From positions 1 through 32,803 of the forward strand of contig JBKKDW010000020.1 in assembly GCA_046708025.1 (NCBI GenBank): a DNA stretch of 32,803 nt, read 5' to 3'. Of this stretch, positions 3,166-32,791 are shown one piece after another. Position numbers and translations under genes: made by a program. The notes beneath the pieces are model-generated. The model worked only from the letters and a program-made list of their open reading frames with translations. It made no database searches and had not been told where the DNA came from. Position 1 is the stretch's first letter, and every line of letters starts with the position of its first letter. The DNA is from Candidatus Limnocylindrales bacterium. Its GTDB lineage: Bacteria; Chloroflexota; Limnocylindria; Limnocylindrales; CSP1-4.

Positions 3166-4860
3166 ATGACTGACCGATCGGGCGAGTGGGCCGCTCGTCG
3201 CCGCGCCTGGGAGGCGGAGCGGCTCGATCCCGCTCTGGCCAGGGCGCCCGAACGGCGCGACCGCTTCTCGACCATCGGCGACACGACCATCGAGCGGCTC
3301 TACGGCCCGTGGTCGTCGCCGGAACGGGTCGCTCACCCGCTGCGCGACATCGGCTTGCCCGGCGAACCGCCGTTCACCCGGGGCATCCACCCGACCGGCT
3401 ATCGAAGCCGGCTCTGGACGATGCGCATGTTCGCCGGGTTCGGGGCGGCCGAGGATACGAACGCCCGCTTTCGACAGCTGCTGGCCGCCGGCCAGACCGG
3501 ACTGTCGATCGCCTATGACATGCCGACCCTCTACGGCTACGACACGGATGACCCCGAGGCCGAAGGCGAGTTCGGGACGTGCGGTGTGGCCGTGTCGAGC
3601 CTCGCCGACATGGAAGCACTGCTCGCCGACCTGCCCCTGGAGAGGATCTCCACGTCGATGACGATCAATTCGCCGGCCGCCCCGATCTGGGCGATGTACA
3701 TCGTCGCGGCCGAGAGGGCTGGCGTCCCGCGCTCGCACCTGGAGGGCACGACCCAGAACGACATCCTCAAGGAGTTCGTGGCCCAGAAGGAATACCTCTT
3801 CCCGCCGATGCCGTCGATGCGCCTGGTGACCGATACGATCGAGTTCGGGACGCGCGAGTTGCCCAAGTGGAACACCGTGTCGATCAGCGGCTACCACATC
3901 CGCGAAGCGGGCTCGACAGCGATCCAGGAGCTGGCCTTCACGATCGCCGACGGGATGGCCTACGTCGAGGCCGCGCTTGCGCGAGGCCTGGCCATCGACG
4001 ACTTCGCCCCGCGCCTCTCGTTCTTCTTCAACAGCCACAGCGACTTCTTCGAGGAGATCGCCAAGTTCCGCGCCTCGCGCCGGATCTGGCACCGGCTGAT
4101 GACCGAGCGCTACGGGGCCGAAAACGAGCGCTCGGCCTGGATGCGCTTCCACACCCAGACAGCCGGCGTTTCGCTGACTCCCCAGCAGCCGCTCAACAAC
4201 CTGACCCGGGTTGCCCTCCAGGCCCTCGCCGCGGTGCTCGGCGGCACCCAGTCGCTCCACACCGACGCCTATGACGAGGCGCTCGCGGTGCCCACCGCAG
4301 AGGCGGCCCTGCTCGCGCTGCGCCAGCAGCAGATCATTGCCGAGGAGTCCGGGGTGGACGCCACCGTCGACCCGTTGGGCGGCTCCTGGTTCGTCGAGGC
4401 GCTGACCGATGAGACCGAAGTCGCCGTGCTTCGCTACCTCGACGAGATCGATCGGCGCGGCGGCATGGTCGCCGCGATCACCGAGGGCTACCCGCAGCGC
4501 GAGATTGCCGACGCGGCCTATCGTTACCAGCTCGAGTTCGATGCCGGCGATCGGCGAGTGGTTGGGATCAATGCCTACGTCGACGAGGCGGAGCGCACGT
4601 CCGTTCCGGTGCTGGCCGTCCCGCCCGGGTCGCTCGAACGCCACCTGGAGCGGCTCGAGCGAACGCGTCGCGAGCGGGACGCGGGAGCGGTCGATGCGGC
4701 GCTGCGAGGTCTTCGCGAAACCGCTATGCGGCCCGAATCGAGCGAGACCAACCTGATGCCCCACTTCATCCGGTGCGCCGACGCGTACGCGACGCTCGGC
4801 GAGCAATGTGCCGTGCTGCGGGCGGTGTTCGGGGAGTACCGCGAGCCCGTCGCGGTCTGA
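3166..4860 (+). CDS. icmA: B12-dependent acyl-CoA mutase, large (substrate-binding) subunit; isobutyryl-CoA-mutase-like signature
   Basis: 564 aa with strong methylmalonyl-CoA mutase family blocks ([67 protein letters not shown]). It lacks a B12-binding domain, so the enzyme is split. Phe89 and Gln207 sit where MCM has Tyr89 and Arg207. The icmA symbol is an inference. Confidence 0.9.
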
Positions 4861-4864
4861 CACG

Positions 4865-5347
4865 ATGTATCTCGATTCGCTCGAGTTCCTGGAGGAGGAG
4901 CGCGATGCGTGGGCGCCGTTCGAGGCGCTCGCCGCGCTGACCGACGAACAGCTTGCCGTCCCGCTTGTCCAGGCGCATGGCTGGTCGGGCCGGGGTCTGA
5001 TGGGCCACCTGCTCGCATGGCAACAGATCGCCTTGTCCGTGGCGACCGAGCTGGCCGTCAACGACACGAGCCCGATGCGGGCACAGATCAGGGCCGATTG
5101 GAACGCCCGCGGTGGCGAAGTCGTCAATGCCGAGATCGAGGCCACCTGGGGCGCACTCCCGATGACCGAGCTTCGAGATCGCTTTGAGGCACTGCCCGGC
5201 CAGCTGCGCGGCTACCTGACCGTCGTGCCCGAAAGCCGCTGGCTCAAGCATGCCGACCACCAGCGGTTCTTCTCCGAGAACACGACCGAGCACTACGAGG
5301 AGCATCGGGCGGACCTCGAGGCGGTACTCGAGGCGGCTCGCGGGTGA
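4865..5347 (+). CDS. DinB-like / mycothiol-dependent-enzyme-like helical bundle protein
   Basis: ATG at 4865, 5 nt after the mutase stop. 160 aa with MGHLLAW..TTEHYEEHRADL, a DinB-type His pattern. Confidence 0.6.
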   Translation: MYLDSLEFLEEERDAWAPFEALAALTDEQLAVPLVQAHGWSGRGLMGHLLAWQQIALSVATELAVNDTSPMRAQIRADWNARGGEVVNAEIEATWGALPMTELRDRFEALPGQLRGYLTVVPESRWLKHADHQRFFSENTTEHYEEHRADLEAVLEAARG

Positions 5348-12807: not shown

Positions 12808-13728
12808 ATGACGATCGAGCGAGCCTTCGTCGCCGGGGCCGGGCTGATGGGCCATGGGATCGCGCAGGTCCATGCGGCGATCGGCATCACCGTGGCCCTG
12901 TAAGAACCGGATCTGGGGAGGGCGCAGGCCGGTCGCGACCGGATCGCGGCCAACCTCGATCGCGCAGTCGCCAAGGGACGGCTCGAAACCGCCGACCGGG
13001 ACGCCACCCTTGCCCGGATCACGCCGACCCACGACGAGGCGGCCGCTCGCGACACGGACCTCGTGATCGAGGCCGTCTTCGAGGACCTCGAAGTCAAGTC
13101 GGCGCTGTGGGGAACGCTCGATCGGCTGGCCCCGCCGGGCGCCATCTTCGCCTCGAACACGAGCTCCATTTCGATCGGCCGGCTGGCCGCGGCGGTCTCG
13201 CCGGCCCGCCGCGAGCGCTTCGTCGGGATGCACTTCTTCAGTCCCGTGCCGGTCATGCCCCTGATCGAGCTGATCCGCGGGCCAGCCACCACCAACGCCA
13301 CCGAGTCCGCGATCCGGGCGCTCGCCGAGCGGCTCGACAAGCGGGTCATCGTATCGGCCGACCGGCCCGGGTTCATCGTCAACCGGATCCTGATGCCGTT
13401 CCTGGCCGAGGCGATGCGCGCGTTCGAGGGTGGCCTCGGGACGGCAGAAGACATCGACACCGGCGCCCGGATTGGGCTGAACCACCCGATGGGCCCGCTC
13501 GAGCTGGCCGACTTCATCGGGCTGGATATCTGCCTCGGCGTGATGCGCGTCCTGGCCGAGGGGCTGGGCGGGGAGCAGTTCGCGCCACCTCAGGTACTGG
13601 TGGAACTGGTTGAGGCCGGGCATCTCGGCCAGAAGACGGGGCAGGGTTTCCATGCGTATCCACGCCAGGGACCGACGGAAGGGGCGGCGGTGCCGCCGGG
13701 GCCGCCGGGGGCGGGGCGGCCAGGATGA
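12808..13728 (+). pseudogene. hbd: 3-hydroxybutyryl/3-hydroxyacyl-CoA dehydrogenase interrupted by an in-frame TAA
   Basis: ATG 12808 gives MTIERAFVAGAGLMGHGIAQVHAAIGITVAL, the Rossmann GxGxxG. TAA follows at 12901-12903. The same frame then continues EPDL..NTSSISI..MHFFSPVP..DRPGFIVNRIL..GQKTGQGF to 13728. Confidence 0.85.
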
Positions 13729-14888
13729 CCGGCGACCTCACGCCGGAGGAGGGGCTGCTCCAGGCGACGGCGCGGGAGTTCGCCACCCGCGAGCTGGCGC
13801 CAACCGCGATCGAGCGCGATGAGGCCGAGCGCTACGACCGCTCGCTCTTTGCCAAGATGGGCGAGCTTGGGCTAACCGCGGCGCCGCTCCCCGAGTCGGT
13901 CGGCGGGGCGGGCTTTTCGTACCTCGGCTGGACCCTGGTCATGGAGGAGCTCGGCGCGGTTGACATGTCCATGGCCGTGTCGCTCTCGGTCCATCTCCTG
14001 TCGCAATATCCGGTCGTGACGTGGGGGACGCCGGAGCAGCAAGCACGCTGGCTGCCGGCGATGGTCGGCGGCCAGGCAATGGGTGCGTTCGCCCTGACCG
14101 AGCCGCATGCCGGCAGCGATGCGGGGGCGATCCGGATGCGAGCGGAGCGAGTGGGCCCGGCCGATTCGCCCGATGGATACCGGTTGACCGGCACCAAGAT
14201 CTGGATCTCGAACGCCCCGGAGGCGGAGCGCTACCTCGTCTTCGCCTCGCTCGACCCCGCCCTGGGCGCCAGGGGTATCAGCGCCTTCCTGGTCGAGAAG
14301 GGCACGCCCGGCTTCCGATTCGGGGCGCATGAGCGAAAGATGGGGATCCGGGCCTGTCCGGCTTCGGAGCTCGTCTTCGATGGCGCAGAGATACCGGTCG
14401 CTAACCGCCTGGGCGCGGAAGGAGAGGGCTACCGGATCGCCCTGTCCGCGCTTGGCGAAGGCCGCATCTCGATCGCCGCAGCGTGTGTCGGGATCGCTCG
14501 GGCCGGACTGGAGGCGTCGGCACGTTATCTCACCGAGCGCCGGGCGTTCGGGGCTCCGCTGGTGGAACAGCAGGGCCTGCGCTTCATGCTGGCTGAGATG
14601 GCCCGCGAGGTGGCAGCGGCCCGTGCCGTGACCCGGGAAGCGGCCCGGGCCAAGGATCGCGGCGAGCCCCTCACCGAGGTCTCGTCGATCGCCAAGTGGA
14701 CGGCCTCGGATGCCGCCATGCGGGTGGCGACGGACGCGGTCCAGCTGTTCGGGGCCAGCGGCTACTCGCGCGAGACCGGGATCGACCGGCTGATGCGCGA
14801 CGCCAAGGGCGCCCAGATCTATGAGGGCACCAATCAGATCCACCGCCTGATCGTGGCCGACGAGCTGCTACGGGGCCTCATCGGCTGA
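13725..14888 (+). CDS. acyl-CoA dehydrogenase (short/medium-chain type)
   Basis: 387 aa. Its start overlaps the hbd stop (ATGA). Blocks LTEPHAGSD, ERKMGIRACPASEL and IYEGTNQIHRL (catalytic Glu region) are present. Confidence 0.92.
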   Translation: MTGDLTPEEGLLQATAREFATRELAPTAIERDEAERYDRSLFAKMGELGLTAAPLPESVGGAGFSYLGWTLVMEELGAVDMSMAVSLSVHLLSQYPVVTWGTPEQQARWLPAMVGGQAMGAFALTEPHAGSDAGAIRMRAERVGPADSPDGYRLTGTKIWISNAPEAERYLVFASLDPALGARGISAFLVEKGTPGFRFGAHERKMGIRACPASELVFDGAEIPVANRLGAEGEGYRIALSALGEGRISIAAACVGIARAGLEASARYLTERRAFGAPLVEQQGLRFMLAEMAREVAAARAVTREAARAKDRGEPLTEVSSIAKWTASDAAMRVATDAVQLFGASGYSRETGIDRLMRDAKGAQIYEGTNQIHRLIVADELLRGLIG

Positions 14889-14984
14889 CACACATCTGGC
14901 CGGGCGGGGCACCGCGGACCCGCCGGCCGCGCGCCGCGGGCGCCCGAGGGCGAGCCGCTCACGATCGCGCCGCAACGGGCGGCA

Positions 14985-15169
14985 TTCCTGCCATCCGTCC
15001 ACGACGTGGACCTTCGGCGGGTCCCGGCGAACCGAAGAGAGCCCGCCGACGAATCGAAGTCCCTACGGGTACGAATTCACGCTCAGCGCTGGGTGGGTCG
15101 CGTCCGGGAGACCCGTCGCACGGGCCCCAGATCGCGCCCAAGGCGCTCCGTATGGACCGATGGCAGGAA
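14985..15169 (+). repeat. ~185-nt unit U1 with inverted arms
   Basis: The arm at 14985-15001 is the reverse complement of TGGACCGATGGCAGGAA (15153-15169) at 16/17. The interior is homologous by eye, roughly 60%, to U2. Confidence 0.6.
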
Positions 15170-15817
15170 ACTAAGCGCATCGACTCTGCCGCGAGGTCGG
15201 CGTAGCCAGCCACGCATCGTGCGCCCGTCGGCCGGGAACTTGGCTCGAAGGACTGTCTCGTGGCCGGACACCGCTCGCCGATTCGTTCGACTCTCCGCGA
15301 GGACGACCCAGGCCGACGTTGCCATCGGGTCCCAGCCTCGGTCGTTCGCGATCGCCGCCGCCAGTCGCCGCTTCCGATCCAGGGATCCCATCAGTTCGGT
15401 GATCTCGACTAGCTCTGTCTTCAATTCGATGACCACGAGCGACCGATATGTCGAATGCCACGCAACGATGTCAATCACGCCGCGCTCGCCGTAGATCGAA
15501 AACGACACCTCCGGCTCGGCCGTCCAACCGTCGAGCGAGCGAAACATCCGAGCCATGGCCTCGTGCATTGCCGAATGCCGGACGTTGATCAGCCTGCCGA
15601 GATCGCCACCCTGCCATCTGACAACCACGTCAAGCCGGGCATCCAGCGCATGGGCAACTCGCCGAATCAACCCGAGCGGCAGACCTGTCAGGCGGCCGTG
15701 CTCGATCCGACCGATCATCGTGCGCGAGACCCTGGCCTTGGCAGCTAGATCCTTCTGCCGCCAGCGCTTTCGCACCCGGATCGCGCGCAGCGCAGCACCG
15801 ACACGTTGGTCGTCCAT
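15083..15817 (-). CDS. XRE-family HTH protein fused to a PD-(D/E)xK-like (restriction-endonuclease-fold) domain
   Basis: 244 aa. The N-terminus LRAIRVRKRWRQKDLAAKARVSRTMIGRIEHGR is an HTH_3. The C-terminal half has E(PEVSF)..GERGVIDIVAW..LVVIELKTEL, a D-X(n)-E-x-K pattern. The last ~30 codons are Arg-rich and overlap repeat U1. Confidence 0.75.
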   Translation of the reverse strand: MDDQRVGAALRAIRVRKRWRQKDLAAKARVSRTMIGRIEHGRLTGLPLGLIRRVAHALDARLDVVVRWQGGDLGRLINVRHSAMHEAMARMFRSLDGWTAEPEVSFSIYGERGVIDIVAWHSTYRSLVVIELKTELVEITELMGSLDRKRRLAAAIANDRGWDPMATSAWVVLAESRTNRRAVSGHETVLRAKFPADGRTMRGWLRRPRGRVDALSFLPSVHTERLGRDLGPVRRVSRTRPTQR

Positions 15818-15890
15818 TCACGCAGTGTCGCCAGGGGCGCTTATCTACGGTGCACCTGGCCGCCTGTCTCGGCCCCGGCGCCAGGCCCTG

Positions 15891-16076
15891 ATCCTGCCAC
15901 CGGTCCACCAGGTGCACCCTTGGGCTGGTTTCGGGGGCTCGAACGACGCTCGCGATCGGTCCATTGAGCCTCGGCGCCTCGATCCCACGCTCACAGAACG
16001 GGCGTGCGCAGGCCGATTGGCTGCCAGGAGCGCTGCGATCGAGCCGAACGCTCACGTCGTGGACCCATGGCAGGAA
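15891..16076 (+). repeat. ~186-nt unit U2, direct repeat of U1
   Basis: Arm ATCCTGCCACCGGTCCACC (15891-15909) faces the arm at 16053-16076. The 3' parts align with U1 (GATCG.GCC.AA..CGCTC...TGGACC.ATGGCAGGAA). Confidence 0.55.
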
Positions 16077-16202
16077 AGAAGCGGGGCCGCGCCCGCCCGG
16101 CCCGGCCGCCCCGCCCGGCCCGCCGCGCTCGGACCGGCCGCCCTCGGACCGGCCGCGCCCGGCCCGCCGGACCACCCGCGCCGCCCGGTGTAGATTCGGA
16201 CC

Positions 16203-17438
16203 ATGAATCAATCCCCCGGCCAGAACGGCAACGTCTACGTCGTCAGCGCTGCCCGAACGCCGATCGGCAAGTTCGGCGGTGGCCTGGCCGGAGTCCCTGC
16301 CGTTGAGCTCGGCGGTGTCGCCATCCGCGCGGCAATCGAACGGGCGGGCCTGCCCGACGGCACCCCGGTTGACGAGGTCCTGATGGGCCAGGTCCTCCAG
16401 GCTGGTGCCGGCCAGGCCCCGGCTCGCCAGGCAGCCCTGCGCGCCGGCCTGCCGGACACGACCAGTGCCACGACGATCAACCGGGTCTGCGGTTCCGGCC
16501 TCAAGGCGATCATGCTGGCCGCCGCGGAAATTCGAGCCGGCGACGCGGAGGTCGTCATCGCGGGCGGGATGGAGTCGATGAACGGCGCGCCGTACCTGCT
16601 GCCGGGCGCCCGCTTCGGCTACCGCCTCGGCCACGCCGAGCTTATCGACGCCACCGTCAACGACGGCCTGATGTGCGCATTCGAGCACTGCCATATGGGC
16701 ACCCATGCCGAGCGCGTCGCCATCAGGAACGGCGTGAGCCGGGCGGACCAGGATGCCTTTGCCCTCGCCAGCCACCAGAAGGCGATCGCCGCGATCGACG
16801 CCGGGCACTTCGAGGCCGAGACCACCCCGGTCACCGTGCGCGACGCCAAGGGCCGCGAGACGCTCGTGACCACCGATGAGGCCCCCAGACGCGACTCGAC
16901 CGCCGAGGCCCTGGCGCGGCTGAAGCCGGTCTTCGCGCTGCCGGACGGCGAGGATCGCGGCGACGCCACGGAAGGCACGATCACGGCCGGCAACGCACCG
17001 GGCATAACGGACGGCGCGGCAGCGACAGTCGTGGCGAGCGAGCGGGCCGTGGAGCGCCTGGGCCTCAAGCCACTGGCCCGGATCGTCGGGTATGCCCAGG
17101 CCGAGGTGGCGCCAAAGTGGCTCTTCCTCGCCCCGCTGGTGGGCGTCCGCCGGCTCCTGGATCGGATCGAGCTCCCGATCGAGGCGTTCGATCTGATCGA
17201 GATCAACGAGGCGTTCGCCGCCCAGACCCTGGCCGACGGGCGCGACCTGGGCTTCGACTGGGAGCGGGTCAACGTCAACGGCGGGGCGATCGCCCTGGGT
17301 CACCCGATCGGGGCGTCCGGCGCGCGGATCGTGGCCACGCTCCTGCACGAGCTGCGCCGCCGCGAGGGCCGCTACGGGCTCGCGACGCTGTGCCTGGGCG
17401 GCGGCGGCTCCGTCGCGGCGGCGTTCGAGCGGGTCTGA
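16203..17438 (+). CDS. acetyl-CoA C-acetyltransferase (thiolase II)
   Basis: 411 aa with NRVCGSGLKA (active Cys), NGGAIALGHPIGASGAR and CLGGGG. Confidence 0.93.
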   Translation: MNQSPGQNGNVYVVSAARTPIGKFGGGLAGVPAVELGGVAIRAAIERAGLPDGTPVDEVLMGQVLQAGAGQAPARQAALRAGLPDTTSATTINRVCGSGLKAIMLAAAEIRAGDAEVVIAGGMESMNGAPYLLPGARFGYRLGHAELIDATVNDGLMCAFEHCHMGTHAERVAIRNGVSRADQDAFALASHQKAIAAIDAGHFEAETTPVTVRDAKGRETLVTTDEAPRRDSTAEALARLKPVFALPDGEDRGDATEGTITAGNAPGITDGAAATVVASERAVERLGLKPLARIVGYAQAEVAPKWLFLAPLVGVRRLLDRIELPIEAFDLIEINEAFAAQTLADGRDLGFDWERVNVNGGAIALGHPIGASGARIVATLLHELRRREGRYGLATLCLGGGGSVAAAFERV

Positions 17439-21397: not shown

Positions 21398-21418
21398 GTG
21401 ACCCGGCGGCGCGCGATA

Positions 21419-21590
21419 CGCATGACCGCCTGTTCGGACTCTTACGGACGACGTTCAGGCACCCGGGCGGACCACAGCCCCAGGTCGACGCTCAGCGCGA
21501 GGTCGAATCCAGCCCCGGCGGGCCGGATTCACTGATACCAGCCGGAATCGCTCGTTACCAGTCTCCTGACGACTGTATGCGTACAACGGG
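21419..21590 (+). repeat. intergenic element family, copy A (~170 nt; possible structured RNA)
   Basis: Aligns end to end with copy B. Shared blocks are GGACTCTTACGGACGA, CGCTCAGCGCGAG(N)GTCGAATCCAGCCCCGG and GTTACCAGTCTCCTG(N)CGACTG(N)ATGCG. Indels are not multiples of 3. Confidence 0.75.
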
Positions 21591-22153: not shown

Positions 22154-22264
22154 GTGGACGCCTCCATGTTCGTAGATACGAGGTCAGAACTGGGCAGCCA
22201 TTCTATCGAGTCAACGGCCGAGGACCATGAACGCATCGCCTGTCGGCCCGAGCGGCGCGGGAGG

Positions 22265-22436
22265 CGCATAACCGCGTGTAGGGACTCTTACGGACGAACT
22301 CGAGCCACCGTCGCGAGCCAGGGCCGGATCCACGCTCAGCGCGAGAGTCGAATCCAGCCCCGGGGCGCCGAATTCATCGTGCACCACCCGGATTCCCTGG
22401 TTACCAGTCTCCTGGCGACTGCATGCGGACAACCGT
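22265..22436 (+). repeat. intergenic element family, copy B (~170 nt)
   Basis: See copy A. The 5' CGCAT and 3' ATGCG ends are complementary. The internal hairpin GAATTC/GGATTC covaries with GATTC/GAATC in copy A. Confidence 0.75.
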
Positions 22437-22904: not shown

Positions 22905-23128
22905 CCCGTCGCGCCGATCCAGCGCGCATCCACCAGGCCCGGCGCGCCGCCATCCGCAACCGCCTGCTCACCGACGCCGGCATGGACCCCGACCTCGCCG
23001 ATCGGTGGTGCGAGGCGTGGGACACGGAGGCAACCCTCCGCGGACTCGCGCGCGATGGCGACTACTGGGACGCCGGCAAGCTCTGGATCGACGCCCAGTG
23101 CGCGGCCAGGAAGCGTCCGCCGAACTGA
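22901..23128 (+). CDS. 75-aa hypothetical protein (MTRRADPARIH.. family)
   Basis: Translationally coupled to the membrane protein. Broken paralogue pieces occur at 24205-24300 (-) and 24678-24813 (+). Confidence 0.6.
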   Translation: MTRRADPARIHQARRAAIRNRLLTDAGMDPDLADRWCEAWDTEATLRGLARDGDYWDAGKLWIDAQCAARKRPPN

Positions 23129-24204: not shown

Positions 24205-24300
24205 TCAGTTCGGCGGCGTCTTCCTGGCGGCGCACTGCGCGTCGATCCAGAGCTTGCCGGCATCCCAGTAGTCGCCGTCCCGGGGAATTCGCCGAATCAA
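24205..24300 (-). pseudogene. C-terminal remnant of a paralogue of the 75-aa protein
   Basis: The minus strand reads ..PRDGDYWDAGKLWIDAQCAARKTPPN*, against RDGDYWDAGKLWIDAQCAARKRPPN* at 23054-23128. There is no N-terminal half upstream. Confidence 0.7.
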
Positions 24301-24573: not shown

Positions 24574-24648
<75 letters not shown>

Positions 24649-27054: not shown

Positions 27055-28133
27055 GTGAAAGGTCGCCTCACGGGACGCGCAGCGATGTGGGCCACGGGCG
27101 TCCTGGTCGCGATTGGCGGCTACCAGCTCCTGCTCGCGCAGGGACGTTCCCCGATCAACCTTGTCTTCATCTCTGTCCTGCTCGCGGTCCTCGCCGGCGC
27201 ATCGCTGATCCGACCATCAGTCGGCGCGGCAACCCTCCTGATCCTGGGTGTGCTGCTCGCACTGCCGCCCCCAATGGAGTGGCTCTCGTTGGTCTTGCCC
27301 CCGGGCAATTACAAGGGGGATCTGCGCTGGATTGGCAGCCTGACCGTGTTCGTGGTCGGGTTGATTACGGCGATCTGGCGACGACCGCCCACCCGACGAC
27401 CAGATGGGACGCTGGTCGTCGCGTCGCGGCTGGTCAACTGGCTCGCGCTCCTGTGCGCCGTCGGTGGGCCGGTCATCGGGTGGGCAGTATTCGCCGCATT
27501 GACTCCGGGAGACCTCTTTGGGCGGGATGCCATGGTGGGCCTGATCGGCACGGCCGTCGGCCTGTTCGGGCTCGTGCTATTCAGCGGCTATTCGGCCTTC
27601 CATGTCCTGACCCGCGCGCCGGGACGAGCGGCCATCCTGGCTGTTGCGTATCCGCTGGGGCTGGGGCCCCTCGTAATGTCAGCTCCTCTATGGGTCGCGC
27701 CGAGGGTGCCCGTGCCGGAAGCCATCGTCGAGAACCGGCTGGCAGATGGCAGGTTGGTCAGCGCCTCACATGCGTCGCCGGCCGGTCCGCCCGTCTACGC
27801 CATCGACGGCCGGGCGGATACTGCATGGAACGCGGGCACGCACCCGCCCAGCGTGGATCGAGATCGACCTTGGTGAAGCCTCCACGATCACAGCGATCAG
27901 GCTCCTCGTGGCGCAGGCTCCTGGCGGAGAGACGGTTCACCGTCATCGTGATCAGTTCGGCTGGGAATCGGCAGCAGATCGCCGAGTTTCGCGGCGTTAC
28001 CCGTGACGGCGCTCAACTGGAGCATGTGCTGACGACACCGTTGGCGGACGTCGTGGCCGTGCGAATCATCACCGTAGGAGGCCCGTCGTGGGTTGCCTGG
28101 CGAGAGATCGAGGTCGTCGTCGCGGGACCGTGA
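27055..28133 (+). pseudogene. polytopic membrane protein with C-terminal F5/8 type C (discoidin) domain, split over three frames
   Basis: Frame 1 gives ~6 TM segments, then ..PVYAIDGRADTAWNAGTHPP. Frame 2 gives AWIEIDLGEASTITAIRLLVAQAPGGE. Frame 3 gives RFTVIVISSAGNRQQIAEF..VAVRIITVGGPSWVAWREIEV. Joined, these make one discoidin domain. Confidence 0.7.
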
Positions 28134-28150
28134 CCGCCGTTGGGCGCCAG

Positions 28151-28190
28151 ATCCTGCCTTGCGCCCACCACATGGACCGAAGGCAGGAAG
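28151..28190. repeat. palindromic copy of the TGGACCGA(W)GGCAGGAA arm motif
   Basis: ATCCTGCCTTGCGCCCA..CA..TGGACCGAAGGCAGGAAG. TCCTGCCTT pairs with AAGGCAGGA over 9 bp. The right half matches 15153-15169 at 16/17. It lies between convergent genes. Confidence 0.6.
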
Positions 28191-28247
28191 GGGTGGCCGC
28201 GTCGCCGCGGGTGGCCGCGCACGCCGCAACGGCAGGCCCGCGACGGC

Positions 28248-29156
28248 CTAGCGGCAGACGACCGGGTGGGGTTTCGGATGGGCCGCTTCGTAGGTCGACC
28301 CGGCCGACCCGATTCGCTTGGCGACCACGATCAGCTTGCCCAGCGTCCCGCGTGGGCCCTCCGAGGTCTGGATCCAGAGCTGCTCCGGCCCGATGTCGAA
28401 GACGCCGTCCAGCGAGGTCACGTGCCGGCGGACCCTGGTGACCTGATACGTCGACACGAGGTTGTTGCTGGTCCACACCCGGACGGTCGCGCCGAGCAGG
28501 CTGGCTCCATTGTTGATCTTCGACCGTTCCAGGAGCGGCAGGAACATGCCCTTCCGCGCGTGGGCGTAGATGAAGGTCACGCCCGCCTCACGCGGCTGGG
28601 AGAGCTCCTGGATGTACATGGCCACGTTGCACAACGGGTAGCCGGCCCCTGGCTTGATGACCGGCAGATCGATCGTCAGGCCGGGCATCGCGATCCGCGT
28701 GGCGACCGCGAAGTTCAGCGCGCCGCAGCGAGCCAGTGAACCGGTCCCAACCTTGATCGAGATCGCCGAGGTGCGCGCGTACGCCCAGATCGAGTTCATG
28801 ATCCGGGTCGATACCGCCGACGTCTTGCTTACCGCGCCTGACGCGTCGGTGACCGCACCCGGCAGGCGGGTGATGAGGGTCGGTTTCGCGCACGACCCGC
28901 GGTAGGCGATGACCGGATACGTCGTGGACGGCCGGAGGTTGGCCAGCTTCAGCCCCAACGCTCCGTTGCCTGCCCAGTAGGCGGTGAGGATCGCTGTCCC
29001 ATTCACACCGTTGGCGCCCAGCGATGTCCGCCAGGTGCGCCGAATCGATGCCGCCGACGCGGTCGAAGCGAATACGGTCGCGACCAGGACGACGAGCGTC
29101 ACGAGTACCGCGAAGCGCCGCGGACGCGTCCAGGAGCGTCGCGATGTGACCTGCAT
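28248..29156 (-). CDS. secreted two-domain protein: paralogous beta-rich domain (copy 2) plus sortase-fold domain with Ser at the Cys position
   Basis: 302 aa with a signal/TM segment. The N-domain is GANGVNGTAILTAYWAGNGALGLKLANLRPSTTYPV. The C-domain is RIAMPGLTIDLPVI..PREAGVTFIYAHARKGMF..TVRVWT..YQVTRV..LWIQTSEGP..KLIVVA. The block order is sortase-like, with TS (TCG 28362-28364) replacing TC. Confidence 0.65.
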   Translation of the reverse strand: MQVTSRRSWTRPRRFAVLVTLVVLVATVFASTASAASIRRTWRTSLGANGVNGTAILTAYWAGNGALGLKLANLRPSTTYPVIAYRGSCAKPTLITRLPGAVTDASGAVSKTSAVSTRIMNSIWAYARTSAISIKVGTGSLARCGALNFAVATRIAMPGLTIDLPVIKPGAGYPLCNVAMYIQELSQPREAGVTFIYAHARKGMFLPLLERSKINNGASLLGATVRVWTSNNLVSTYQVTRVRRHVTSLDGVFDIGPEQLWIQTSEGPRGTLGKLIVVAKRIGSAGSTYEAAHPKPHPVVCR

Positions 29157-30859: not shown

Positions 30860-32791
30860 ATGCGCCCGGAGAGGGGTCCGATGCCCATCGGACGGGATGT
30901 TGCCAGCGGGCGCGGCAGGTCTCGAGCGAGCCTTGCCGTGGCAATCATGATCGGGCTGCTGAGTTCGTCGGCGTGGGCCGCGCTCGGTGGCGTGGTTCGA
31001 GCTGCCGAACCGCCGGTGGCCTTCGACCAGGCCGCGAGCACGCGCGAGTCGGTGCCGCTGGAAATCTTCCTCGACGCGTCAGATCCGGACTTCGACCCGC
31101 TCTCGTTCACGATCCAGGCCGACGTGACACACGGCGTGCTCGGCGACTGCACGAGCGGCGGGTGCACCTACACGCCGACCGCCGGATACGTGGGTCCCGA
31201 CAGCTTCACCTTCAGCGCAAACGACGGTCTCGCGGACTCGAATATCGCGACGGTGTCGATCACGGTGTACGCGAATGGCGCACCGATCGCCTCTGATCAG
31301 CCGGCGTCCGTGCAGCAGGACACGCCCGAATCGATCTTTCTAGGCGCGTTGGACCCGGACTTCGACGAGCTCACGTTCACGATCATCGCCGCGCCCACCC
31401 ACGGCGACATCAGCGGGCCAGACTGCGCCGGCCTTGGGGAATGTGTCTACACACCCTCGTCCGGCTATCGGGGTCCCGACAGCTTCACCTACAGCGCGAA
31501 CGACGGCTTCGTCGAATCGAACGTGGCGACGGTGTCGATCACGGTGACCGGGCCGACGCCGGTGATCGTCTCCAGCGGGCCGCTGACCAGGATTGAAACC
31601 ACGCCCGACCTCAACTGCGCGGTCAACCACGCCTCCGACCTGAGCGGCGAGTTCTATGCGGACACGGCGTGCGCGACCCTGGTCGGGGTCGAGGGGGTCC
31701 TGTATGGGCCCGCATATATCCCTGCCGGACCAACGGGCGACGTCGTGTTCACGCCGGTGAGCCAGTCGGCCGTGCTCGGCACTGGCAGCGCCCTGGATCC
31801 GCTGCGGATCGTGACCGTGGTCGACCTTGGCGCAACCGGCCTGCGGCTCACCCAGACGGACAGCTACGTCATCGGGCAGGAGGCGTATCGCACGGATATT
31901 GCGATCGCCAACGCCGGGCCGTCAGCCAGGACCATCCTGCTCTACCGTGCCGGCGACTGCTACCTCCAGGACTCGGACGCGGGCTATGGCAGCGTCGACA
32001 TCAGCACCGGGGCTGTGGCGTGTGTGACTTCCCTTGATAGCGGGGCGCGGATAGAGCAGTGGTTCCCGCTCTCCGCTGGAAGCCACTATTACGAAGCAAG
32101 TTTCGGCGAGGTCTGGAACCGGGTGCTCTCGTTGACCCCGTTTCCGGACACCTGCCGGTGCACCGAGTTGATCGATAACGGTGCCGGCCTCAGCTGGGAG
32201 GTCACGGTCCCCGCGGGAGGAGCCGCGACTCGGTCGCAGATCACCGGGTTCTCGCCGATCGGTCGCGTGCCGTTGACCACCGCGAAGGCTGCCGATGCCG
32301 CCACGACAGCGGCCGGGGGCCTGAATGGCTACACGATCACGTTCGCGAACCCGAATGAATTCGCTGTCTCGCTGTCATCGGCGTTCGACGATCTCCCGGC
32401 TGGATTCTCGTATGTGGCCGGCTCGACGACGGGCGCGACCAATGCCGACCCAGCGATCGCGGGCGGCCGACTGACCTGGTCGGGCCCGATCGCGGTCGGG
32501 GCATTCGGAGATGCCTCGATTCACTTCTCGGTCACGGTTGCCAGCTCGGTCGGGACCTATTCGAACGAGGCAGGTGGCACGGCCGGATCCGACGTCGTGA
32601 TCGCGACCGGCCCGACCGCTCCGATCACGGTGACCGCAGCGGCCCCGACCCCGCCCCCCACCCCGCCCCCCCCCCCCCCCCCCCCCCCCACCCCCCCCCC
32701 CCCCCCCCCCCCCCCGCCGGTCAGATCCTCCCACTGGAAAACGATGGCCCAAACAATCTGCGCGAACGCGAGCGTCAGCATGGCGAGGTAG
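30860..32791 (+). CDS. large secreted surface protein: 2 tandem Ig/cadherin-like repeats, a central domain, a DUF11-like domain and a poly-Pro tail
   Basis: A signal peptide is present. The ATG at 30881 after GGAGAGGGG is the likelier start. There are two ~95-aa repeats (D.DFD.L.FTI......G.....C....C.YTP..GY.GPDSFT.SANDG...SN.ATVSITV). LNGYTITFANP..GTYSNEA is conserved-repeat-domain-like. The 3' end past 32666 is unreliable because of C homopolymers. Confidence 0.75.
   Translation: MRPERGPMPIGRDVASGRGRSRASLAVAIMIGLLSSSAWAALGGVVRAAEPPVAFDQAASTRESVPLEIFLDASDPDFDPLSFTIQADVTHGVLGDCTSGGCTYTPTAGYVGPDSFTFSANDGLADSNIATVSITVYANGAPIASDQPASVQQDTPESIFLGALDPDFDELTFTIIAAPTHGDISGPDCAGLGECVYTPSSGYRGPDSFTYSANDGFVESNVATVSITVTGPTPVIVSSGPLTRIETTPDLNCAVNHASDLSGEFYADTACATLVGVEGVLYGPAYIPAGPTGDVVFTPVSQSAVLGTGSALDPLRIVTVVDLGATGLRLTQTDSYVIGQEAYRTDIAIANAGPSARTILLYRAGDCYLQDSDAGYGSVDISTGAVACVTSLDSGARIEQWFPLSAGSHYYEASFGEVWNRVLSLTPFPDTCRCTELIDNGAGLSWEVTVPAGGAATRSQITGFSPIGRVPLTTAKAADAATTAAGGLNGYTITFANPNEFAVSLSSAFDDLPAGFSYVAGSTTGATNADPAIAGGRLTWSGPIAVGAFGDASIHFSVTVASSVGTYSNEAGGTAGSDVVIATGPTAPITVTAAAPTPPPTPPPPPPPPPTPPPPPPPPPVRSSHWKTMAQTICANASVSMAR
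32666..32715. repeat. two C homopolymers (24 and 25 nt) separated by one A
   Basis: C run 32666-32689, A at 32690, C run 32691-32715. Read as poly-Pro on the plus strand and poly-Gly on the minus strand. Confidence 0.95.

Follow-up and report, generated by a model that had tools for sequence, protein, structure and literature searches.

Two kinds of described systems come closest to the locus reported here. In RAYT/REPIN systems, tyrosine transposases are found with doublets of repetitive extragenic palindromic (REP) sequences (PMC3116915, PMC3337134, PMC5581495, bioRxiv 10.1101/2021.07.10.451892). Free-standing homing endonuclease genes, such as seg and mob of T4 or the gene for the PD-(D/E)xK enzyme I-Ssp6803I, are single nuclease genes located between conserved genes, at sites that are either occupied or empty (PMC6083498, PMC2988022). 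We have analyzed a 1.09-kb cassette at positions 14985-16076 of contig JBKKDW010000020.1 from Candidatus Limnocylindrales bacterium (assembly GCA_046708025.1); the whole stretch of DNA that was analyzed, 32,803 nucleotides, is called the window below. The cassette carries inverted repeats and one gene, predicted to encode an XRE helix-turn-helix (HTH) domain fused to a PD-(D/E)xK nuclease domain. We tentatively read it, at somewhat less than an even chance, as an old and dispensable nuclease gene of the Limnocylindria coupled to its own inverted-repeat module at the 3' end, forming a slow selfish unit that resembles a RAYT/REPIN system or a homing endonuclease gene and in which the protein would act on the arms of the repeat.

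The likeness to RAYT/REPIN lies in the organization. In both cases a low-copy chromosomal gene of nuclease or transposase type is inherited mostly vertically and has palindromic repeats of its own on its flanks, each repeat unit consists of two inverted arms and a spacer, and paralog lineages have different cognate repeats. However, the enzyme here is no HUH/Y1 transposase but combines an XRE HTH with a PD-(D/E)xK domain. The coding sequence (CDS) contains one of the arms, the unit of ~185 bp has 35-bp arms and no GTAG or CGTC tag, copies are few and mostly local (in the window and ~8.7 kb per relative), and many close relatives lack the gene. The literature searched contained no RAYT-like pairing that involves a PD-(D/E)xK enzyme. 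With free-standing homing genes the locus shares the single nuclease gene between conserved genes at a site that can be occupied or empty, the lack of a transposase and of a target duplication, and fast evolution. It differs from them in being chromosomal in free-living bacteria and not phage- or intron-borne, in being older than its flanks suggest, in carrying a co-varying inverted repeat, and in spawning copies of its 3' module, a behaviour not known from homing genes. One of the two repeat units of the cassette, U2, also recalls a miniature inverted-repeat transposable element (MITE) and its parent insertion sequence (IS): this short non-coding unit lies between inverted repeats and has ends in common with a protein-coding 'parent'. 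Here, however, it is only the 3' end of the parent that carries the common sequence, in the form of a complete module, and neither a target-site duplication nor a DDE, HUH, serine or tyrosine enzyme accompanies it.

The 3' module of the nuclease gene and its copies

The features of the cassette and of its surroundings are the following.

15083-15817, minus strand: gene for the XRE-HTH + PD-(D/E)xK nuclease, 244 amino acids, with the HTH at residues ~3-66, the nuclease domain at ~72-220 and a tail at 221-244
14985-15169, minus strand: U1, the gene's own 3' module, 185 nt, bounded by 35-nt arms and comprising the final 29 codons with the stop codon, then ~98 nt of 3' flank
15135-15169, minus strand: arm C, the inner, coding arm of U1 (codons F217-R228, FLPSVHTERLGR), encoding the conserved SFLPSVH
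14985-15019, minus strand: arm D, the outer arm of U1, in the non-coding 3' flank; it tracks arm C across species and has its own palindrome, GTCCAC-GTC-GTGGAC
15891-16076, minus strand: U2, a 186-nt secondary copy of the 3' module, with arm A at 16043-16076 and arm B at 15891-15923, in the divergent intergenic region between the thiolase gene and the HTH gene
28142-28200, minus strand: relic of another copy of the 3' module, encoding PFLPSVHVVGARQDLAP and including a fifth TGGACCSATGGCAGGAA motif
15818-15890, minus strand: 5' region of the HTH-nuclease gene, presumed promoter or leader, with motifs GATAAGCG... GACACTGC (gene orientation) kept among occupied loci
16187-16198, plus strand: GGTGTAGATTCG, directly upstream of the thiolase start in occupied and empty loci, the thiolase-side limit of the insert
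13725-14888, plus strand: flanking acyl-CoA dehydrogenase gene (acd), whose stop lies 0-64 nt from the thiolase start in empty-site relatives
16203-17438, plus strand: flanking thiolase gene, divergent from the HTH-nuclease gene

In an earlier sequence-only reading of this DNA, the cassette was taken for a mobile unit bounded by terminal inverted repeats (TIRs). The repeats themselves are well founded: the 24-nt ends match at 22 of 24 positions, and the repeat search of the window extends them to 34 nt at 85% complementarity (14985-15018 / 16043-16076). Each unit has inverted arms of its own, of 35 nt and 74% in U1 (14985-15019 / 15135-15169) and of 23 nt and 83% in U2 (15892-15914 / 16053-16075). 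With no more than 3 mismatches allowed, the window contains the 17-mer TGGACCSATGGCAGGAA 5 times (0.15 expected), a count reached in none of 100 shuffles; four copies lie at the cassette arms, where the arm motif had been placed by the sequence-only reading, and the fifth at 28173. The two ~185-nt units had also been described as direct repeats of each other. This is true of their arms, which are 83% and 77% alike (z 7.1 and 6.3), and not of their interiors (65%, z 1.4), which have little in common beyond a TGAGCGTG block at the stop-codon offset. Likewise, there is a single minus-strand gene, as proposed, but it does not lie wholly between the units: its open reading frame (ORF) extends 87 nt into U1 (15083-15169), and the inner U1 arm is therefore coding. 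U2 is non-coding and bounded by inverted arms of 23-34 nt at 83-85%, which corresponds to a short MITE-type unit; the 32.8-kb window contains 2 U units and 1 relic, with no duplicated target site seen. The absence of a target-site duplication at 14984/14985 or 16076/16077 had already been remarked, and the spacers of empty sites cannot be aligned to these junctions. The lower G+C content that had been estimated by eye was confirmed by calculation (0.62-0.64 over 15150-15750 versus 0.70-0.76 in the flanks).

A scan of GTDB species representatives gave 218 stretches encoding the family, and our comparisons use the best 80 of these 218. The loci, designated L plus a number, were grouped by ORF clustering of their flanks and then checked with Pfam; the clustering was noisy because high G+C yields spurious ORFs in all frames. 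When each locus was searched with its own in-CDS motif, the four-arm layout was found only in the window, L001 and L003. The region between the thiolase gene and the nuclease gene measures 348-385 nt in these three, versus 58-213 nt, with no arm, in the other occupied loci. The proposal that the 24-nt ends are the termini of a TIR-bounded mobile unit did not withstand this comparison, U2 being present, of about 34 occupied loci, in only these three. Ancestrally, the unit consists of the gene with one repeat-bounded module at its 3' end, and the window looks TIR-bounded because the divergent promoter region has received another copy of the module, U2. The other possibility put forward from the sequence, a gene captured between two MITE-like repeats, came closer with the direction reversed: it is from the 3' module of the gene itself that the repeats were copied.

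Arm D is present in nearly all syntenic loci and changes along with the coding arm C, for example GTCCA/TGGAC versus GTGCA/TGCAC, or AAACGC/GCG.TCT. This co-variation was quantified on an alignment of 29 species (A3). RNAalifold predicted 12 C:D pairs, 11 of them with compensatory changes. Over the full 35-pair stem, 74.5% of the cells are paired, compared with 34-39% when the partner is slid by 1-3 columns, and double-change cells number 135 versus 36-59 in the slid controls. The covariation score of 0.318 (at most 0.117 in controls) was matched by none of 500 shuffles, and compensatory changes were found in 26 of the 35 pairs. The non-Watson-Crick cells comprise 61 G-U and 68 A-C. There is thus no G-U excess and therefore nothing to indicate selection on a single RNA strand; with about a quarter of the cells mismatched, the repeat looks more like a DNA site present twice than like a stable RNA helix. 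In addition, every arm holds a small palindrome of its own, e.g. GGTGCA-N5-TGCACC in L008.

The repeat is not restricted to the site found in the window. A Smith-Waterman test applied to each of 76 loci (significance at z >= 3) detected a 3' repeat in 34, namely 18 of 32 syntenic loci (group S), 5 of 13 in group B, 4 of 5 in group E and 7 of 18 ungrouped ones. In groups S, B and E, the significant repeats mostly start within ~5 nt of the F217 codon, and their outer edge lies mostly at +155 to +220. These edges are shared between groups although the arm sequences are unrelated. In the family the module covers ~170-200 bp, the outer arm lying ~115-150 nt downstream of the inner coding arm, and it accompanies the gene regardless of the orientation of the downstream gene (e.g. 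in L075). The interior of U1 is unconserved. Folding energies correspond to z-scores of -3.3 for U1 and -2.6 for U2.

Extra copies point to the module as a discrete unit. The limits of U2 coincide on both sides with the outer ends of the arms, and its stop-codon block is at the matching offset. The window and L001 have orthologous U2 units (81%, z 19). The U2 arms of L003 are closer to the U1 arms of that genome than to the U2 of the window, and U1 and U2 can therefore be said to evolve in concert. The relic at 28142-28200, between the convergent genes 27087-28133 (plus strand) and 28248-29156 (minus strand, sortase-like), encodes PFLPSVHVVGARQDLAP, which is identical at 14 of 17 positions to residues 216-232 of P0032/P0040 (E ~3e-5 in a 240-protein database). 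It is closer to this other allelic lineage than to the gene of the window, and the similarity begins at TTCCTGCC, the arm end. The most recent-looking duplication seen in the family is in L076, where a 201-nt direct pair (2282-2482 and 4831-5031) is 92% identical, each member having inverted arms and a pseudo-tail (WTNSLGETGR..SRPIR). Inverted copies of the module lie 0.9 and 2.6 kb upstream of the gene in L052 and L057, and in L077 the coding arm is copied upstream in direct orientation; together with the window, L001, L003 and L076, these are the loci with an additional upstream copy. Tandem duplications directly 3' of the gene were found in L016, L020, L030, L040 and L053. All extra copies with a readable start begin at the arm's outer end, at the same codon. 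Tandem gene duplication followed by deletion was considered as the origin of U2 and is less likely than the copying of a discrete unit, because U2 matches the outer ends of the arms and the relic, too, starts at an arm end. A metagenome scan with the arm (TGGACSSRTGGCAGGAA) was uninformative on abundance: among the matches listed, there were chance hits in unrelated taxa with G+C of 0.31-0.75, with no HTH-nuclease gene and essentially no partner arm.

Other repeats were observed in the window and in the relatives. The 201-nt pair of L076 is accompanied by a 13-nt sequence repeated three times in tandem (4781-4828). In L054, a 61-nt tandem array (4778-5049; 4.5 copies, 96% matches) begins right after the 3' inverted repeat of the paralog, and the contig ends inside it. 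A 78-nt inverted repeat of the window (23051-23128 / 24205-24282, 90% complementary) encloses 1,076 nt with a local G+C of 0.62-0.66; each of its arms reads as the 3' end of a CDS (...GDYWDAGKLWIDAQCAARKRPPN, then stop), and a tRNA-Lys(ctt) lies at 24574-24648. This inverted repeat may represent either a further small cassette or the relics of two convergent genes. Self-BLAST also showed direct repeats, ~190-210 nt long, at 21402-21587 versus 22247-22433 (78%) and at 31064-31267 versus 31334-31546 (72%).

As regards regulatory signals, GGTGTAGATTCG is probably the thiolase's own promoter or leader element. The promoter scan gave no sigma-70 consensus. The lone terminator-like site in the terminator scan is at chance level and outside U1 and U2, a terminator-like T-run being absent, and the Rfam search gave nothing relevant to the U modules. 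A G(A/G)T(A/G)AGCG motif occurs at 15838-15846, ~30 nt upstream of the start of the HTH gene, and also in L004, L008, L010, L020 and L022; in L020, L022 and L008 it is multiplied into tandem GGTGAGC(G) arrays. The motif may represent an operator or a -10-like element.

The HTH-nuclease protein and its family

The N-terminal domain scores above the Pfam cut-offs with HTH_3 (PF01381; 31.9 bits versus a cut-off of 23, E 1.4e-7) and HTH_31 (PF13560; 29.9 versus 27). Its fold matches HigA2, HipB, C.AhdI and C.Esp1396I with root-mean-square deviations of 1.3-2.4, and a profile search of PDB sequences returned HTH proteins only, C.BclI being the best (3.1e-5). Restriction-modification (R-M) controller (C) proteins and HigA/HipB antitoxins are thus closest to the HTH. 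In contrast to these, it is fused here to a nuclease, and no methyltransferase or toxin partner gene is adjacent. The C-terminal domain is covered by no Pfam, NCBIfam, PADLOC or PHROGs model above threshold, these libraries seeing the HTH. For the nuclease domain, the sole Pfam match is a sub-threshold YhcG_C PDDEXK, and PADLOC gave weak, non-significant matches of its core to the candidate family PDC-S02. A DDE, HUH, serine, tyrosine or DEDD recombinase or transposase domain was found with none of Pfam, NCBIfam and PHROGs, nor was there any Y1_Tnp/HUH match, in line with the sequence-only reading, which had excluded the DDE, HUH, serine and tyrosine types.

The full-length AlphaFold2 model, built with 120 homologues, has a predicted local distance difference test score (pLDDT) of 84.7 and is folded over residues 1-220. 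The tail, residues 221-244, is predicted to be disordered; it is Arg-rich and contains a conserved PxRRV motif. An invertible segment swapping the C-terminus was ruled out, the tails of 120/120 homologues being in one orientation, with PxRRV. In the window, the stop codon comes two codons earlier than in most relatives (15083-15091; TGA GCG TGA versus xGA GCG TGA, i.e. ...RA and then stop), giving 244 instead of 246 amino acids. Modelled alone, the nuclease domain reached a pLDDT of 91.6 and a predicted template modelling score (pTM) of 0.87, with the element order H-E-E-E-H-E. Foldseek against the PDB returned only PD-(D/E)xK nucleases for this domain, apart from some low-probability beta-lactamase matches, and none is close. 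The best match is the restriction-like endonuclease (RLE) of the R2 retrotransposon (E 5.5e-4, TMq ~0.48). The others include the XisH family (structures 2okf and 2inb, E 0.02-0.03), VC1899, Can2/Card1, AF1548, Bax1, bunyaviral cap-snatching endonucleases, BstEII, Cas4 and McrC. TnsA of Tn7 and XisH of the Anabaena fdxN element both function in DNA mobility. They and the R2 RLE share the PD-(D/E)xK fold with the nuclease domain, but identities are 12-17%, TM-scores are moderate, no reverse transcriptase, TnsB or XisF/XisI partner is present, and TnsA was not among the Foldseek matches.

The catalytic motif reads GVID116 ... VIE131-L-K133. Among the 120 homologues, E131 and K133 are invariant and D116 is conserved in at least 90%; E103, E111 and H81 are likewise invariant, in all paralog groups. 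D116, E131 and K133 are retained across the paralog groups, and the core PEVSFSIYGERGVIDILAWH...LLVIELKTE is near-invariant in all of them. Because of the domain model, the PD-(D/E)xK matches and the conserved catalytic residues, the predicted PD-(D/E)xK nuclease fold of the C-terminal domain is supported and the enzyme is probably active. The XRE-HTH / PD-(D/E)xK fusion first suspected from a D..E-x-K pattern thus found support both in the Pfam scores of the HTH and in the structure prediction that had been suggested as a check.

As judged by its sequences, this is a sizeable, uniform and undescribed family. An exhaustive phmmer search with the nuclease domain alone gave 1,420 clusters (50% identity) at E <= 1e-3 and 923 at E <= 1e-10, most members having ~240-260 amino acids with the nuclease domain at ~72-220. 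The 90%-identity collection holds more than 2,500 homologues, and all the named ones come from metagenome-assembled genomes of Chloroflexota / Limnocylindria; nearly all of the best 80 loci also belong to the Limnocylindria. From these searches, the family is seen almost only in Limnocylindria, with a uniform architecture of XRE HTH, PD-(D/E)xK domain and Arg-rich tail. Two or three copies, with identities of 52-69% to the query protein, occur in some genomes. The absence of relatives from IMG/VR viral contigs and PLSDB plasmids leaves a phage or plasmid origin unsupported. The non-syntenic loci form at least four other groups, each with conserved neighbours. These neighbours comprise class II ribonucleotide reductase (NrdJ), GH3, cytochrome c assembly, PNP/luciferase-like, inositol monophosphatase, MBL and glyoxalase/HPPD genes, and no mobile-element genes are among them.

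Occupied and empty sites between acd and the thiolase gene

In 32 of the 80 loci the gene adjoins acd and/or the thiolase gene, and in 25 of these it lies demonstrably between both, as in the window. Since these loci had been selected via the HTH gene itself, the search for empty sites was re-anchored on the thiolase: ten homologues, 88-91% identical to that of the window, were looked up regardless of the HTH gene. Two loci were occupied (L203 and L204) and five were empty (L201, L205, L206, L208 and L209), with acd followed by the thiolase gene at 0-64 nt by gene calls and no HTH gene. Thus, 5 of the 7 acd-thiolase loci sampled in this way are empty. In L202, hbd directly precedes the thiolase gene. 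L207 and L210 have a different thiolase paralog, 88% identical to that of the window, in a polyhydroxyalkanoate (PHA) synthesis cluster (PhaC/PhaE/PadR/SDR), and for this reason thiolase identity alone fails to define the locus. The insert had been said to split an hbd-acd-thiolase run that would otherwise have a spacer of only ~220 nt. The computed spacer is 222 nt (96 + 126), and the five relatives in which acd is followed by the thiolase gene provide the empty sites whose search had been recommended. They show a dispensable cassette and not an operon member conserved in all relatives. We had at one point read the conserved synteny as a sign that the gene was never mobile; this was dropped once the thiolase-anchored look-ups revealed the empty sites. 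On a neighbour-joining tree of the thiolases, the empty loci are interleaved with the occupied ones, and the gene must therefore be dispensable and have been lost or gained several times. No arm remnants were seen in the spacers of the empty loci.

On both sides of the cassette, the window has G+C-rich low-complexity spacers of CCGGCCCGG type (14889-14984 and 16077-16186), which form a weak inverted repeat (14898-14937 / 16081-16120; 40 nt, 70%). Empty-site relatives have only 0-64 nt at this place.

The gene evolves faster than its surroundings. Over 21 syntenic loci, the mean protein distance is 0.38 for the gene versus 0.14 for the thiolase and 0.17 for acd, i.e. a ~2.5-fold higher divergence, and nucleotide identities are 74-82% in the flanks and 66-79% in the gene. 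The ratio of gene to flank nucleotide distance is 1.0-1.3 in tight clades and 2.0-2.6 for some pairs with equally close flanks; L010 and L021, for instance, differ by 0.139 in the flanks and by 0.366 in the gene. These uneven ratios suggest deep allelic lineages, or occasional replacement, at one site. Because the same site is occupied in ~32 species and the gene is more diverged than its flanks, the gene is, on these distances, old and its insertion not recent.

Proposed mode of action and alternative explanations

We propose that the arms would be the protein's own cis sites, bound by the HTH either as a duplex or as an extruded hairpin. The nuclease would nick or cut at the arms, and this action would occasionally copy the module, mostly nearby, while coevolution with the protein would keep both arms matched. 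We infer, in other words, that the protein binds or cuts the arms and thereby copies the module. The pair of gene and module would behave as a slow, mostly vertical and sometimes lost selfish unit, nearer to RAYT/REPIN or to a free-standing homing gene than to an insertion sequence. In a bolder version, which we consider improbable, the HTH-PD-(D/E)xK protein would be the sole enzyme of an unrecognised class of prokaryotic mobile DNA. It would recognise a ~185-bp hairpin-forming module whose inner arm lies in its own CDS, and would copy it, and rarely itself, by nuclease-initiated repair. Such a system would be the PD-(D/E)xK counterpart of RAYT/REPIN or of IS200-type hairpin elements, confined to the Limnocylindria and very long-lived.

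Several observations weigh against the proposed coupling of gene and module. The recognition helix of the HTH (SRIERGH) is well conserved across paralogs whereas the arm sequences differ completely, which argues against a simple helix-to-arm read-out. No significant 3' repeat was found in groups C and D (0/4 each). Outside the gene neighbourhood, only one relic was seen in the 32.8 kb of this genome and ~8.7 kb per relative. No near-identical copies of the gene were seen and none of its copies is recent, in-genome paralogs being ~52-69% identical to the query. Finally, the flanks show no co-conversion gradient from proximal to distal, and the distances of gene and flanks are only moderately correlated (Mantel r 0.43, p 0.0025), the closest pairs being in agreement.

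Among the alternatives, the gene could simply encode a host regulator, an XRE repressor or activator of the beta-oxidation/butyrate genes in which the nuclease-like domain serves as a sensor or for oligomerisation, and the arms as operators or as a bidirectional terminator. The gene is divergent from the thiolase gene across a short conserved intergenic region, its HTH resembles C-proteins and the HigA/HipB/SinR/ClgR regulators, U2 sits in a promoter region, and U1 lies between convergent genes, where selection on both transcripts would account for the missing G-U bias. We nevertheless regard this as unlikely: invariance of the catalytic D/E/K and of E103, E111 and H81 across paralog groups would be unexpected in a sensor domain, the paralogs adjoin unrelated genes, the operon does without the gene in 5 of the 7 sampled relatives, and the 3' repeat follows the gene whatever the downstream orientation (L075) and has no terminator-like T-run. 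Somewhat less credible again is a nuclease that acts alone in defence or addiction, either like a restriction enzyme or as a toxin with a built-in HTH autorepressor. Its 3' repeat would be a regulatory or terminator hairpin, and the extra copies by-products of palindrome instability. This would suit the presence or absence among close relatives, the fast evolution and the depth of the allelic lineages at a single site (L010 versus L021), the closeness of the HTH to R-M controller proteins and antitoxins, and the weak matches of the nuclease core to PDC-S02. Those PADLOC matches are non-significant, however, no methyltransferase, partner gene or defence island adjoins the gene, and the fixed-codon start of the module copies and the copies 1-2.7 kb upstream would be left unexplained.

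A free-standing homing endonuclease gene in the strict sense ('intronless homing'), each paralog lineage cutting a specific empty site, intergenic or nearby, and being copied in by repair with the repeat as an insulating terminator, ranks behind these two and is in our view rather doubtful. PD-(D/E)xK is among the known catalytic families of homing endonucleases (PMC6083498), and T4-like phages have free-standing homing genes located between conserved genes (PMC2988022). One intergenic site that is occupied or empty in interleaved lineages (about 34 occupied, 5 empty), several paralog lineages each with their own fixed site between conserved genes, the lack of a target-site duplication, and the partly discordant distances of gene and flanks would all agree with homing. 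Yet divergence is higher in the gene than in its flanks, tight clades are congruent with the flank tree, no co-conversion gradient was found, and the co-varying repeat and solo module copies would find no explanation. It is quite improbable that U1 is a structured RNA, either a stabiliser in the 3' untranslated region or a non-coding RNA working with the nuclease and placed like the omega RNA of TnpB/IscB. The compensatory changes in 26 of 35 pairs, the folding z-scores (-3.3 for U1, -2.6 for U2) and the overlap with the 3' end of a nuclease gene, as for omega RNA, would speak for an RNA, but G-U and A-C cells are about equally frequent (61 versus 68), only ~75% of the cells are paired, no Rfam match was obtained, the interior is unconserved, and tandem or solo copies of arms would be unexpected for an RNA helix. 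The autonomous 1.09-kb transposon with TIRs, with the HTH-nuclease as transposase, which was the model of the sequence-only reading, appears the least probable of all. The outer 34-nt repeat (85%) of the window and the like layout of L001, the existence of empty sites, and the inverted module copies upstream of the gene in L052 and L057 could be cited in its favour. The upstream arm is nonetheless absent from about 31 of the 34 occupied loci at the site, no target-site duplication is visible, no near-identical copies were found, and the gene is older than the species splits and was found neither in IMG/VR viral contigs nor in PLSDB plasmids.

Two further comparisons were set aside. In integron attC sites, the R''/R' core sites are RYYYAAC / GTTRRRY. 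An integron gene cassette (ORF + attC) was ruled out, the module ends being TTCCTGCC / GGCAGGAA. TnpB/IscB with an omega RNA was ruled out by the fold, which is PD-(D/E)xK and not RuvC, by the lack of a G-U excess and by the lack of an Rfam match.

Even on a conservative reading of the locus, local duplication of the 3' module of a gene can mimic a textbook TIR-bounded cassette, which calls for caution when such cassettes are interpreted. If it is true that the nuclease acts on its own module, it would add a new enzyme class to the few proteins that mobilise bacterial hairpin repeats. The cis site would then be half coding and half non-coding, a coding stretch and the stretch downstream of it coevolving as DNA. 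Our proposal may thus provide a testable function for an uncharacterised family of ~1,400 clusters (50% identity) in a poorly known lineage of soil and freshwater bacteria.

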